This document shows positions 89 through 4,729 of a DNA stretch of 4,729 bases, piece by piece; position 1 is the first letter of the stretch, and each line of letters begins with the position of its first letter. Position numbers and translations under genes: made by a program. The DNA comes from a virus. Lineage: Duplodnaviria > Heunggongvirae > Uroviricota > Caudoviricetes. The stretch lies in IMG/VR virus record IMGVR_UViG_2711768053_000006. The stretch is one strand, 5' to 3'. Under the pieces are notes generated by a model. The model worked only from the letters and a program-made list of their open reading frames with translations, was not told the origin of the DNA and did not search any database.

Positions 89-373
89 GGAAGTCAGAAC
101 CGTTTATTGCCTCTGCAACCTGTAAAGAAAACACTCCCGTACAGCTCATGCCTGCAAGCGGTATCCGTAAATGCCCTCAGACGCTCCACCAACACCATAT
201 TTCTTTCTTCGTCAAATAACGAAGGTGCGCAAAATTGCGTTATCGAAAGTTGCACCATTTCCGTTATTCCATTCGAAGGCGTGCGCCACAATGCACTGGA
301 TGACGCCCGTCACCAGGCAAAATACGTTACAGCTACGATACAAAAACTGATCCCGAGTCAGGCTGATTTTTAA
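89..373 (+). pseudogene. C-terminal remnant of a DnaQ-like (DEDDh) 3'-5' exonuclease; probably decayed
   Basis: The translation ends ...IPFEGVRHNALDDARHQAKYVTATIQKL..., which matches the Exo III motif (H-x-A-x-x-D-A) of DEDDh exonucleases. The frame is closed upstream by TAA TAA at 83-88, the 95 open codons contain no ATG (the track's start at 107 is TTG), and no Exo I or Exo II motif is visible in any frame of 1-373. Confidence 0.3.
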
Positions 374-384
374 TGTTCAACCCC

Positions 385-417
385 GGTCGTCGCCCACCAG
401 CTATAGTGGCGGCGACC
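385..417. other. GC-rich stem-loop between the exonuclease remnant and xis, with a Chi octamer in the loop
   Basis: GGTCGTCGCC (385-394) pairs with GGCGGCGACC (408-417), 10 bp including one G-U, around a 13-nt loop. CCACCAGC at 394-401 is the reverse complement of Chi (GCTGGTGG), so Chi lies on the minus strand. Confidence 0.25.
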
Positions 418-437
418 ATGATTAGCGAACGACGCTC

Positions 438-686
438 ATGGCAAGACTTATTCTGCTCACTGAGTGGGCAAAAGAGGAATTCGGTGAGCCGGTCCCTACT
501 CCGGGTACGTTAAGTAAATACGCTAAAGCCGGAATGATATTTCCTCTCCCCAAAAAAGTTGGAAGACACTGGCGAGTGGATCCACACGCTCGCTTTGTAG
601 GAATGGTAAACAAGCCGGAGGTGATCGCCACAGATCACCCAGCCTTGAAGAGGATACTGGAAGATGGCGCGCCCGCGAAAATATAA
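438..686 (+). CDS. xis: Excisionase (Xis), lambda-type
   Basis: 82 aa starting at ATG 438. MARLILLTEWAKEEF...GMIFPLPKKVGRHWRVDPHARFVG parallels lambda Xis (MYLTLQEWNARQ...CRIFPPPVKDGREYLFHESAVKV, from memory). It lies immediately upstream of int and overlaps it by 23 nt, as xis and int do in lambda. Confidence 0.8.
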   Translation: MARLILLTEWAKEEFGEPVPTPGTLSKYAKAGMIFPLPKKVGRHWRVDPHARFVGMVNKPEVIATDHPALKRILEDGAPAKI

Positions 687-1794
687 AACTGATGTTCCGG
701 GATTATCTCCGTATTTTGACAAAAGAAATAACAAAGTTTACTGGCGTTACAGGCATCCCATAACAGGCAAAAATCACGGTCTCGGCAGTATTGACCAGAA
801 ACTGGCAGAAACTATTGCAGCAGAAGCGAACAGCCGTCTTGCCAGGCAGCAAATGGAACAAATGCTCAGTCTGCAGGAGAAAATTATTAATGATACCGGC
901 GGTTCATCAACCGTTTCCATTTTTCTGAATAATTACAGAAAAATTCAACAGGAAAGATATGAAAACGGAGAAATCAAACTCAACACGCTGAAACAAAAAG
1001 CGGCCCCTCTCAGGGTATTTGATGAACGTTTTGGCACCAGACCGTTAGATGCCATCACCGTAAAAGATGTGGTATCGGTGCTGGAAGAGTACAAGGCCAG
1101 AGGACATAACAGAATGGGACAAATTTTCAGGAAGGTACTGATCGATGTTTTCCGGGAAGCTCAGCAAACGGGCGATGTCCCGCCAGGCTTTAACCCTGCA
1201 GAATCGGCAAAAAAACCGCAGGTGCGGATATCAAGACAGCGACTGACTTTTGATGAGTGGATGATGATTTATAACGCAGCGGAAAAGGATGGTTACTTTT
1301 TACAGCGCGGCATGCTGCTGGCACTGGTGACAGGCCAGCGCCTTTCAGATATTTGCAAAATGCAGTTTTCGGATATCCGGGATGGTTATCTTCATGTCGA
1401 ACAGCAAAAAACAGGAACCCGGATTGCCATCCCTCTGGCTCTGCGTTGCGATAAATTAAATCTCACCCTGGATGATGTGGTGTCATCCTGTCGCGATTGC
1501 GTTCTTAGTCCGTGGCTATTGCACCATCATCACGCGAAAGGGACAGCTAAGCGCGGCGGGATGGTTAAGCCAGCAACGTTAACTGTTGCATTTAAAAAAG
1601 CGCGGGATTCTGTGGATTACAACTGGCGTGCTAATGGCACCCCACCCTCTTTCCATGAGCAGAGATCTTTATCAGAAAGATTGTTCAGAGAACAGGGAAT
1701 TGATACCAAAATTTTGCTGGGTCATTCGAATCAAAAAATGACCGATATTTACAACGATGCACGCGGCAAGGAGTGGAAAAAACTGGTCATTTGA
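664..1794 (+). CDS. int: Tyrosine site-specific integrase, lambda Int family
   Basis: 376 aa, collinear with lambda Int over its whole length. The N-terminal arm-binding region (MARPRKYKTDVPGLSPYFDKRNNKVYWRYRHPITGKNHGLG) and the catalytic signature are present: R in LVTGQRLSDI, K in EQQKTGTRIAIP, H-x-x-R in FHEQRSLS, and H and Y in LLGHSNQKMTDIY. A Shine-Dalgarno-like GAGGA sits about 9 nt upstream of the ATG at 664. Confidence 0.95.
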   Translation: MARPRKYKTDVPGLSPYFDKRNNKVYWRYRHPITGKNHGLGSIDQKLAETIAAEANSRLARQQMEQMLSLQEKIINDTGGSSTVSIFLNNYRKIQQERYENGEIKLNTLKQKAAPLRVFDERFGTRPLDAITVKDVVSVLEEYKARGHNRMGQIFRKVLIDVFREAQQTGDVPPGFNPAESAKKPQVRISRQRLTFDEWMMIYNAAEKDGYFLQRGMLLALVTGQRLSDICKMQFSDIRDGYLHVEQQKTGTRIAIPLALRCDKLNLTLDDVVSSCRDCVLSPWLLHHHHAKGTAKRGGMVKPATLTVAFKKARDSVDYNWRANGTPPSFHEQRSLSERLFREQGIDTKILLGHSNQKMTDIYNDARGKEWKKLVI

Positions 1795-1801
1795 TGACCA
1801 G

Positions 1802-1835
1802 TTTTGCAGAGGAGTTTTGCAGAGATTTTGCAGAG
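1802..1835 (+). repeat. Three tandem direct repeats of TTTTGCAGAG; candidate Int arm-type binding sites (P'-arm-like)
   Basis: Exact 10-mers at 1802-1811, 1815-1824 and 1826-1835, starting 8 nt after the int stop codon. A fourth near-identical copy (TTTTGCAGAA) lies at 2079-2088. The position relative to int mirrors the lambda P'1-P'3 cluster. Confidence 0.5.
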
Positions 1836-2046
1836 AAAATTAAAAGCGGTACCCGGCAGAGAACATAAACACCCACGGATCCAGTCGTACCGAGTCTTTC
1901 ACGGTATTAACACCAGATTTATACTTAGCCGTGGTATCGATATCCATGTACCACACTGGCAGGTTTCAAAAAATACAATAACCAATTGTATTTAAAACAA
2001 AAAATAAGATTTTGAGATGCTTTTTTGTACCGTTTTTCTGTGTTTT

Positions 2047-2059
2047 TAACCGATTGATT
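2047..2059 (-). promoter_or_regulatory. IHF-binding site consensus match
   Basis: The minus strand reads AATCAATCGGTTA, which fits WATCAANNNNTTR exactly and sits among T-tracts inside the att-like region. Confidence 0.3.
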
Positions 2060-2142
2060 TTGTTGAAATCTTTTTTGGTTTTGCAGAAGGGATTTTTTGC
2101 CTGATTGTAACTTTGCGATTTTTTTCTGGGCTAATTGACGCA

Positions 2143-2184
2143 CAATTCTGGGCAAAAAGCGTGCAACCAAAAAGCCCAGAATTG
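2143..2184. other. Perfect 11-bp inverted repeat with a 20-nt loop; possible RNA processing or terminator-like element, or a protein-binding site
   Basis: CAATTCTGGGC (2143-2153) pairs perfectly with GCCCAGAATTG (2174-2184). The loop is AAAAA-GCGTGCAACC-AAAAA. A third TTCTGGGC copy lies at 2124-2131. The element begins 5 nt from the tfa stop codon. No U-run follows the stem on either strand, so it is not a canonical intrinsic terminator. Confidence 0.3.
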
Positions 2185-2188
2185 AACG

Positions 2189-2767
2189 CTAATTACTGCT
2201 AATCGTCATCGCTCTGATTGAGCGTAAATCCTCCAGATTATTCAGTTCTTCCTTCATCTCACGCTGGCGCTGATAAATCTCGTCATTGCGCTTAACCTGC
2301 GCCTGCGCCATCGCAGCTGCCAGCTCCTGAAGTTGCGCCATTGTCAGTGTGACAAGGTTATTTGCTGCATCCCCCCATCCCAGCGTTGACCGCGTACCTG
2401 CAACCTTTGTCGCCATTGCCACGGGCGCAATACGACTTATTGAGTCTGCACCACCATTCCAGGTACGACCGTTCCATTCGAACGTGAACGGCTGCGCCTC
2501 CTGTTCTGTGCGCCATGCCTCAATTTCCCGTTTTTTGGCATCTTTTGCCGCTGCGATAAGTTCAGGTGTGACTGTAAACGGGGCAATTTCCCCCCATTTG
2601 CCGCTCTGTAACTCTTCCCAGATGCGCTGGCCTGTCGGGGCGGTATCGTCCTGCATGGCGGTATACGGGACGAATTCCGTTTCACCCTCAAATAACACCT
2701 CGCAGTCAACCGCACCATTTTCAAGGTAATGCGCGTTTCTGATGCCTTTTACTGCTCTGATTTTCAT
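2189..2767 (-). CDS. tfa: Putative tail-fibre assembly protein or chaperone (Tfa-like)
   Basis: 192 aa, starting 14 nt downstream of the stf stop with a GAGGAAAT Shine-Dalgarno about 8 nt upstream of the ATG. The size and position are those of lambdoid tfa genes. A central F-x-W-NG...W-NGG segment loosely recalls the lambda Tfa middle region, but the C-terminus lacks the canonical W..YR.LLNRVD-type motif. Confidence 0.55.
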   Translation of the reverse strand: MKIRAVKGIRNAHYLENGAVDCEVLFEGETEFVPYTAMQDDTAPTGQRIWEELQSGKWGEIAPFTVTPELIAAAKDAKKREIEAWRTEQEAQPFTFEWNGRTWNGGADSISRIAPVAMATKVAGTRSTLGWGDAANNLVTLTMAQLQELAAAMAQAQVKRNDEIYQRQREMKEELNNLEDLRSIRAMTISSN

Positions 2768-2781
2768 GTTTTATTTCCTCG

Positions 2782-4729
2782 TTACTCGATGCGCACAAAC
2801 AGGCAAATACGGGCTTCATTACCGTAAGAATCTCTTGCACCGGATAACGCCATATAACGCCCAGGGAAAGTGTACCCGGTAGCCCCAACCTGTGGCGTTG
2901 AGCCGTACGACCCTATCCCTGTAGGTGCTGCGCACTTAATATTTACGGCCCCCAGACGCGAACCCGCCACCACATCACCCAGACCAATTTTGATTTCTTT
3001 ATCCCCGGAAGTTGTTCCGCGATAAACGGCCAGCACCGGAACACCAATTCCCGGATACTGAAAATAAGCGCCACTTCCCGACATGGTCGAAAGATGCTCA
3101 CTTAACATCTTTGACGTCAGAGACAGATTTATGACTGAAATCAGCCCCCACGCCACCTCTCCGTCAGCATATGCAGAGCTGTACTGTGCATAAAAAACAG
3201 ACTGGTCAGAATTTGGCTGATATCTGCTGTAAAAAAATAATCCCTTGTCAGTTTCTGCTGGATTACCGTTACTGACACCGGACGGAAAAAGATTCACGTC
3301 AACAATCCCGGTAAAAGAATCACGGTCCGGTAATATTTTTGAATTGTACAAATAAATAAAATAACGTCCCTCCGTGGCGTTTTTTACCCACTCAAGAAAT
3401 TTTTCATCGGAATTGAAATCAAGGCGTTCTGACTGGCTGAACGCATAACCAAAACCAAAGGCACCAGGCAGTGCCAGCCTGCCCGGCGTGCGGTCGCGGA
3501 TATCGCCCTGGGGTTCCATTGTCGCAGCCGCTTTCAGCTCAAGCTCTGTGCGCATGGCCTCAGGCGTGTCCAGTGCCAGTAATGCGCGGGCTTTTTCTGA
3601 CAGCTGCGCCAGTAAAATCCGGCCCTCTGCGCTGAAATAAGGTAGTGTGTTTTCTTCCGGTGTTATCTGGCTGACAGCCGTTAACACGTCATTAAGCGGC
3701 TGTTTACCTGCCAGTGCTTTAGTGACCGTTGTCGCAAACTCCGGGTCATTGCCCAGCGCAGCTGCCAGCTCGTTCAGTGTGTCCAGGGCTTCCGGTGACG
3801 AGTCAACCAGTGCGGCAAGCAGTTTGCGGACAAAAGCCGCGTTCGCGGTTTCCAGACCAGCAGCATCATCCGGTGGTGTTGGTGTGGTTGGCGTGCCGGT
3901 AAACGCCGGGCTGTCCAGTGGCGCTTTTGTTTTCGTCTCGTCCATGACGGTTTTGACGGCTTTTGGTGTGGCGGCCAGTTCTTCGCTGTCGTTGTCTGTA
4001 TCACTACAGAGTTGCACCAGACCTTTTTCTGTTGTGGAAGCATTGCTTCCCTTCAGGTCATCAACTATCCGTTGCGCCTCGTCCCTGTGCTGTTTTGCTT
4101 CCTGCGCATTGCCTGCGCTCGCATCCTGGCTGACTTTCGCCTGCCGGGCATATTCGGCAGCATTATTTTCATGGCCCAGCGCAACATTTGCCGCATTTTC
4201 TGCACTGGTCGCAGCCGAAGACGCTGCTTCCTTATACTGACTGGCGCGTTCGGCTGCATCAACCGATTCATCCCGCGCCACCCCTGATGTCTGTGCACTG
4301 TTTTCTGCCTCATTCGCAAAACGTTCCGCATCATCACGGGCTGTTGTGGTGACTTCTGCGTCCTGTGCGGTTTGCTGTGCGATTTCTGCTGCACTATCCG
4401 CATGGCTTTTTGCATTCTGCTCGCTCAGGGCGGCGTTATCTGCATTGTTTTTTGATTCCTCTGCGCTGGATGCAGAGTCATCTGCTGCCTGTTTGGCCTG
4501 CTTTACTGCATCTGTAACACTCTGTACACCCTCCTGCACCTGCCCGGCGCTCAGCTCAACTTCTGAGGCCAGCTGTTCAACGCGCTGCTTATCTTCGGCA
4601 ACTGCGATGGCGTTCAGTTGTACGTTATCCGCCAGCGTCTCGCAGTCGCTCTTAATTTGTTGCGCATCAGCGACATGTTGCCCGGCCTGTCGTTCGCTTT
4701 CCGCTGCCGCTTCCGCGCTCTGCTGCGCC
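2782..4729 (-). CDS. stf: Side tail-fibre protein (Stf-like), 5'-partial with the N-terminus outside the window
   Basis: The frame stays open from the TAA stop at 2782-2784 to the window edge; I translated 4540-4728 by hand and found no stop, so the track's GTG start at 4539 is not the real start. It contains the conserved lambdoid fibre segment SPAFTGTPTTP...ALDTLNELAAALGNDPEFATTVTKALAGKQP...LPYF, preceded by an Ala/Ser/Glu/Gln-rich rod and followed by a distal domain of about 245 aa. Confidence 0.9.
   Translation of the reverse strand, partial: AQQSAEAAAESERQAGQHVADAQQIKSDCETLADNVQLNAIAVAEDKQRVEQLASEVELSAGQVQEGVQSVTDAVKQAKQAADDSASSAEESKNNADNAALSEQNAKSHADSAAEIAQQTAQDAEVTTTARDDAERFANEAENSAQTSGVARDESVDAAERASQYKEAASSAATSAENAANVALGHENNAAEYARQAKVSQDASAGNAQEAKQHRDEAQRIVDDLKGSNASTTEKGLVQLCSDTDNDSEELAATPKAVKTVMDETKTKAPLDSPAFTGTPTTPTPPDDAAGLETANAAFVRKLLAALVDSSPEALDTLNELAAALGNDPEFATTVTKALAGKQPLNDVLTAVSQITPEENTLPYFSAEGRILLAQLSEKARALLALDTPEAMRTELELKAAATMEPQGDIRDRTPGRLALPGAFGFGYAFSQSERLDFNSDEKFLEWVKNATEGRYFIYLYNSKILPDRDSFTGIVDVNLFPSGVSNGNPAETDKGLFFYSRYQPNSDQSVFYAQYSSAYADGEVAWGLISVINLSLTSKMLSEHLSTMSGSGAYFQYPGIGVPVLAVYRGTTSGDKEIKIGLGDVVAGSRLGAVNIKCAAPTGIGSYGSTPQVGATGYTFPGRYMALSGARDSYGNEARICLFVRIE

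Follow-up and report, generated by a model that had tools for sequence, protein, structure and literature searches.

The window analysed here, which is the whole stretch of 4729 nt, carries xis and int on the plus strand and tail-fibre genes on the minus strand. xis (438..686, plus strand) codes for an excisionase of 82 aa (PF07825 Exc, E 3e-07 in Pfam). Its 3' end overlaps the start of int (664..1794, plus strand), coding for a lambda-family tyrosine integrase of 376 aa (PF09003, E 7e-22; PF00589, E 1e-16). Residues 14-375 of Int align with lambda Int (5j0n, E 4e-56), and the active-site R, K, H, R, H and Y are all kept in this alignment. Judged by its sequence, Int is homologous to lambda Int over its full length and has an arm-binding domain at its N-terminus. 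The exact Xis protein adjoins int at ompW in numerous other contigs.

The last gene of the late operon codes for a tail-fibre assembly-like protein of 192 aa (2189..2767, minus strand; DUF4376, PF14301, E 3e-16). Next to it lies a tail-fibre gene (2782..4729, minus strand; PF03406 Phage_fiber_2), which is represented by its C-terminal 648 codons and runs off the contig end. The sequence here is 98.9% identical over 2541 nt to four ompW prophages (L006, L008, L009, and L010), whose tail is contractile and Mu-like. int and the tail-fibre assembly gene are convergent, with stop codons at 1794 and 2189, and are separated by 394 bp (1795-2188), in agreement with the gap of about 390 bp described when the sequence was first read.

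A perfect inverted repeat with an 11-12-bp stem spans the int stop codon (1779..1805, plus strand). Its RNA fold (-14.9 kcal/mol, z -4.4) was not equalled by any of 200 shuffled sequences, and its 3' arm runs into the first of the repeats described below as arm-type. This hairpin is a possible int 3' terminator or mRNA stabiliser, and could couple termination to Int binding. Two small ORFs, 1804-1995 on the plus strand and 1925-2170 on the minus strand, are regarded as non-coding on account of their position within the att site.

The gap also contains a 126-nt fragment of the 3' end of ompW (1840..1965, minus strand), missed in the sequence-only reading. It comprises 41 codons and a TAA stop and translates to NLPVWYMDIDTTAKYKSGVNTVKDSVRLDPWVFMFSAGYRF*. 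In junction-bearing genomes, these 126 bp appear in RefSeq as a pseudogene for partial OmpW. It is this fragment that identifies both the core and attB, neither of which had been named from the window.

Comparison with lysogens carrying the same Int defines the site. The exact Int adjoins a complete ompW of 212 aa, followed by yciC, in all ten of the places listed. The attL junctions of ten E. coli contigs with this Int are identical to window positions 1795-1958 with one mismatch, and are unrelated to the window past 1965. The exact DUF4376 protein is found at attR in five of the seven places listed, where the gene order is the DUF4376 gene, about 230 bp, the ompW 3' fragment, yciE, yciF and the trp operon. 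At four of these attR loci (L006, L008, L009, and L010), identity with the window extends from 2188 back to 1931, where the sequence changes to that of the host ompW 3' end. The interval 1795-2188 is thus the reciprocal of attL and attR and therefore consists precisely of the P arm, the core and the P' arm. The attL and attR identities overlap only at 1931..1958 (minus strand), a 28-bp stretch that reads CAGTGTGGTACATGGATATCGATACCAC in the ompW sense; strand exchange must consequently fall within these 28 bp, a limit that follows from sequence identity and holds for this phage-host pair. The same 28 bp are intact in the uninterrupted ompW of E. coli K-12 (gene offset 520), so that the host-genome search for a shared identity of 15-45 bp, proposed earlier, has been answered. 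The core 1931-1958 is common to attP, attB (K-12 ompW), attL and attR. Core and attB, the latter at the ompW 3' end, are now defined.

Inside the core, the inverted hexamers GTGGTA and TACCAC stand 12 bp apart and may be the core-type sites. Folding of the core region was no better than that of shuffled sequences (z -0.4).

Taken as a whole, the interval 1795-2188 is very probably the complete, unrecombined attP of a temperate E. coli phage which targets the 3' end of ompW. The proposal that an intact attP lies between int and the tail-fibre genes is borne out by its exact reciprocity with attL and attR of other genomes. The core was found inside the interval rather than elsewhere in the phage. 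No host genes lie directly beside the interval, the one reservation being a type III secretion system (T3SS) fragment at the left tip of the contig, 1.5 kb away.

The P' arm, next to int, has three exact tandem copies of TTTTGCAGAG on the plus strand (1802-1811, 1815-1824, and 1826-1835). A fourth copy, with one mismatch, is located at 2079-2088 in the distal arm, and no further exact or one-mismatch match was found within the 4.7-kb window. The four matches compare with 0.71 expected, and only one of 200 shuffles reached four. The repeats are thus present on both arms (three plus one) and confined to the attP interval; the three tandem copies are kept in all four aligned attP or junction sequences and in the PPompW attL. 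This fits the arm-type-like repeats noticed earlier, and by analogy the TTTTGCAGAG repeats are presumably the arm-type sites of Int.

The distal arm was examined in an alignment of seven diverged sequences: the window, the EC4115 and Br_190 junctions, phage 204576, P-EibA, PPompW_132418 attR and 401651 attR. It delimits a conserved, AT-rich P arm (1959..2090, plus strand), which includes the fourth repeat and the only WATCAANNNNTTR match to the IHF consensus in the window (2047-2059, minus strand). This match is weak by itself, as 35 of 200 shuffles gave at least one, yet it is invariant across all seven sequences. The T-tracts reported earlier are likewise present: positions 1950-2100 have 27-28% GC and are T-rich on the plus strand. 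The core and the distal block 2040-2087 are invariant in the alignment, and the P-arm block GTGTTTTTAAC..TGATTTT.TT.AA.TCT.TTTT.GTTTTGCAG is invariant or nearly so, while its flanks have diverged. Xis and Fis sites were not identifiable in the attP arms.

Homology among the seven sequences ends near 2090 and what follows is specific to the phage type; the O157-type junctions and six loci found in IMG/VR lose homology at 2055-2100. Since family conservation ends there, the functional attP can be placed at about 1800-2090. The rest of the gap (2091..2188) is a spacer of about 100 bp, non-conserved in P-EibA, PPompW_132418 and Br_190, which takes the place of a b-region, as expected from the earlier description of that region as almost absent. 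A long hairpin occupies this spacer (2130-2195). It is imperfect, with 10 perfect bp in 22-nt arms, and overlaps the stop codon of the DUF4376 gene; as minus-strand RNA it folds with -28.2 kcal/mol (z -3.75). In EC4115 and phage 204576 it is decayed, and the DUF4376 gene there is a pseudogene or differs. A sib/tI-like retroregulator, separated from int by attP, was considered for the 2130-2195 hairpin and rejected as a claim, as there is no U-run, the terminator scan was negative and the structure is unconserved in the family.

By homology with lambda, the N-terminal domain of Int would bind the TTTTGCAGAG repeats, three beside int and one in the distal arm, its catalytic domains would bind the core, and IHF would bend the AT-rich distal arm. 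Strand exchange with ompW would then take place inside the 28-bp identity (1931-1958). Such integration would remove the last ~30 codons of host ompW, for which the phage copy at 1840-1930 would substitute, leaving the lysogen with a full-length, C-terminally altered OmpW. Xis (438-686) would drive the reverse reaction. The binding of Int, IHF and Xis and the exact cleavage positions are predicted from the analogy with lambda.

The ompW 3' end carried by the phage (1840-1930) is not the same as that of the host. In one segment (1866-1898, minus strand) the phage-borne protein reads AKYKSGVNTVK and the K-12 protein ANYKLGGAQQH; every lysogen is thus expected to make an OmpW altered in that segment. 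Lysogens with this Int do encode a hybrid OmpW of the full 212 aa, whose C-terminus is of this type and in one of them (L013) differs from the window by a single residue.

The site resembles that of lambda in several respects. Both systems have a heterobivalent Int with an arm-binding domain, a xis located upstream of int and overlapping it, three tandem int-proximal arm-type repeats (those of the window being positionally analogous to P'1-P'3) with at least one distal repeat, and an AT-rich distal arm with a match to the IHF consensus. The conserved site is somewhat longer, about 290 bp as against ~240 bp for lambda attP, and the arm-type sequence is different. Unlike in lambda, attB is intragenic, and therefore in the P' arm the core is separated from the arm-type repeats by ~90 bp of substitute coding sequence. 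Also unlike in lambda, the b region is essentially absent and a sib/tI-like element could not be demonstrated.

The closest known elements are the PPompW prophages of STEC and EPEC, for which ompW as attB and an att of 121 bp were published (Nakamura et al., 2021, PLoS Pathog, PMC8112680). Treatment with mitomycin C yielded circles that PCR could detect, and their attP was sequenced from PCR products (PMC8112680). A PPompW integrase was defined by >90% identity over >90% length to the PPompW integrase of O145:H28 (PMC8112680). Window positions 265-1965, which include all of int, are 96.1% identical to twelve PPompW-containing records, and this level of identity across int places the integrase within that definition. 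PPompW (LC567822.1) has the same exonuclease gene 3' end, xis, int, P' arm and conserved P-arm block, the same attB in ompW and a duplicated ompW 3' segment. This duplication is annotated as 121 bp in LC567822.1, whereas exact identity with the host covers just 28 bp in the phage studied here. The late ends are different: in PPompW a lambda-like tail precedes nleG/espM effector loci, while the window has the DUF4376 and tail-fibre genes. In relatives the latter late end is part of a prophage whose tail is contractile and Mu-like and whose terminase is of the P27 type.

We are confident that the phage combines an integration module of the PPompW integrase family with a phiP27-like late module encoding a contractile tail. 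The two modules occur together in single prophages bounded by ompW and yciE. One of them, located in NZ_CM129040.1, measures 44 kb and comprises a lambdoid early region, P27-type terminase, HK97-type capsid, Mu-like contractile tail, tail fibre and DUF4376. In GCA_012251565.1, ~39 kb of a single contig separate the exact Xis, found at attL, from the exact DUF4376 protein, found at attR; the int side there is 97.2% identical to the window. The tail side of the window is 100% identical to such single prophages over 1931-3630, and its int side has one mismatch over 913-1958 relative to other lysogens. The differences that do exist are clustered: 26 out of 29 differences from L006 fall within the tail-fibre gene (3631-3901), and 14 out of 16 differences from L015 within xis and the start of int (483-711). 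Such clusters resemble recombination patches, so the element can be considered mosaic.

The DUF4376 gene is also found in other surroundings. In a Logan contig (L011, 7314-9311), an identical or related gene follows immediately after a lambda-type major capsid gene E, and in Br_190_kylling (L002, 8132-8794) it adjoins a capsid gene fragment. Together with the P arm, the DUF4376 gene seems to be exchanged among late regions of very different kinds.

Junctions like that of the window, contiguous from int into the P arm, have also been described in chromosomes. E. coli O157:H7 TW14359 carries two prophages in tandem at ompW, and a related arrangement in EC4115 was attributed to homologous recombination (PMC9997748). 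We inspected both loci and found them in agreement with the published accounts. The O157:H7 tandem has the same contiguity of int, ompW', core and P arm (95.2% identity over 265-2089), but past ~2089 its junction leads to effector loci of the neighbouring prophage and not to a tail-fibre assembly gene. In EC4115 (NC_011353.1, 2933555-2985110) the junction leads to a prophage that ends at an integrase beside mlrA (yehV) rather than ompW, an end which fits the published relocation by homologous recombination between prophages.

The physical state of the source molecule is a separate question. The window is the reverse complement of a whole WGS contig (CXXT01000102.1, 4729 bp, draft assembly GCA_001268445.1), so nothing flanks it; an identical 4729-bp contig was recorded in two samples. 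Judging by the behaviour of short-read assemblers, neither side of the site is likely to be duplicated in the source. As the contig passes through the site unbroken, two identical tandem copies are disfavoured on this view, and so is a source that mixes integrated with excised forms. The states listed earlier on the basis of the sequence (phage, circle, plasmid-like prophage, tandem) were apt choices. Both tandem junctions on finished chromosomes and a separate 31.5-kb phage record exist.

The left end of the contig is unusual and bears on this question. Positions 1-224 are not phage DNA: sctV is represented here by its first 33 codons and sctW by its last ~43 codons (minus strand). These positions are 91.6% identical to pCEA224S and CP057153.1 (E. 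coli) and 88-90% identical to Salmonella plasmids. The source type of sctV and sctW is a plasmid-borne T3SS on ~130-kb conjugative plasmids of E. coli. An origin from the mxi locus of Shigella pINV was considered for this segment and rejected, as no Shigella plasmid matched. At 223-262 there follows a piece of the prophage exonuclease gene, 37-40 nt long and inverted, which is normally located ~100 nt upstream and whose minus strand here encodes GNGATFDNAILRT; only at 261 does the exonuclease gene resume with its normal 3' end. Two breakpoints thus fall within 40 nt, almost without microhomology. Such a structure points to a complex rearrangement from which only exo'-xis-int remained, or else to a chimeric tip of the contig. 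A chimeric tip would lower trust in the assembly, while the presence of the same contig in two samples leans slightly towards a real left junction. A scan of genome contigs for the 30-mer across the T3SS/exonuclease junction and for a conserved T3SS 50-mer gave no match, and in the plasmid collection the T3SS plasmids carry no int.

For the source itself, we see about an even chance that the window represents an internal hybrid junction, with the P and P' arms derived from different prophages, in a tandem or partly deleted chromosomal array. Among 5426 complete E. coli genomes, 347 hold at least 80% of 1795-2188 contiguously, nearly all places being chromosomal; such junctions are therefore common on finished chromosomes. 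Besides the documented tandem of TW14359, GCA_050626215.1 has a tandem with the same Xis, in which int/junction/DUF4376 is located 28.8 kb from int/ompW/yciC on a 5.2-Mb contig, and decayed versions are present in Br_190_kylling and EC4115. The exonuclease gene upstream of xis is reduced to its last ~37 codons, which fits a remnant and not a viable phage, although this truncation could be an assembly artefact. An array further requires that the two prophages differ enough in int and the tail genes for unbroken assembly, and the contig shows neither a host flank nor a flank from a second prophage.

Possible but rather unlikely is a free phage genome co-assembled with its host, whether excised as a circle, replicating, packaged or plasmid-like. 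Here the unbranched passage of the contig through the site is readily accommodated, and both halves of the window belong to one phage type that exists elsewhere as a single prophage, down to the complete identity of the tail side mentioned above. The PCR detection of PPompW circles points the same way, and so does a 31.5-kb record, 'Escherichia phage 204576', in a finished ETEC assembly, where int, attP and tfa are contiguous (94% identity). This record (CP025907.1, 31,521 bp), in which the attP-form junction lies at ~21.5-22.0 kb, was deposited as a complete phage, although lambdoid phages are usually larger; what it has in common with the 44-kb ompW prophage is limited to the early and int region, the late region being unrelated. 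However, free forms are far rarer than chromosomal junctions in finished genomes, and the early region is missing from the window if its left end is real. A search of IMG/VR contigs with the exact 49-mer across the P arm, core and P' arm gave no matches, and all six loci found there with a degenerate pattern were O157-type junctions. When the plasmid collection was compared with window 225-4729, no plasmid in the attP form was found; the only matches were of the attL type, on ompW-carrying records that look like chromosome pieces filed as plasmids. Overall, a junction within a tandem or decayed array appears somewhat more likely than a free circular genome.

It is improbable that a single ordinary prophage was misassembled, with its attR and attL sides misjoined through the core and the ompW similarity. 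True junctions do share 28 identical bp and partial similarity beyond them, and the suspicious left tip, with its paired breakpoints and inverted piece, is on the same contig. But a 28-bp repeat is shorter than the usual k-mers and reads, so true junctions should be resolved, the identical contig was obtained from two samples, and real junctions of the same architecture are abundant. Finally, it is very doubtful that the left junction is real in the sense of rare plasmid-borne T3SS DNA fused to a truncated exo-xis-int-attP module; if it were, a T3SS replicon or island would bear a complete and functional ompW integration module and could move into and out of ompW like an integrative element.

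The earlier reading of this locus was correct and the system is an ordinary one. The PPompW family, its ompW target, the att duplication and tandem occupancy are already published, and the site adds no new biology. Its value is for annotation, as it fixes the core at 1931-1958, attB at the ompW 3' end and the functional extent of attP at about 1800-2090. The int-attP integration module at ompW is very common in E. coli, and since such junctions are frequent in chromosomal prophage arrays, the contiguity of int, attP and tail genes in a draft assembly is not proof of a free phage.
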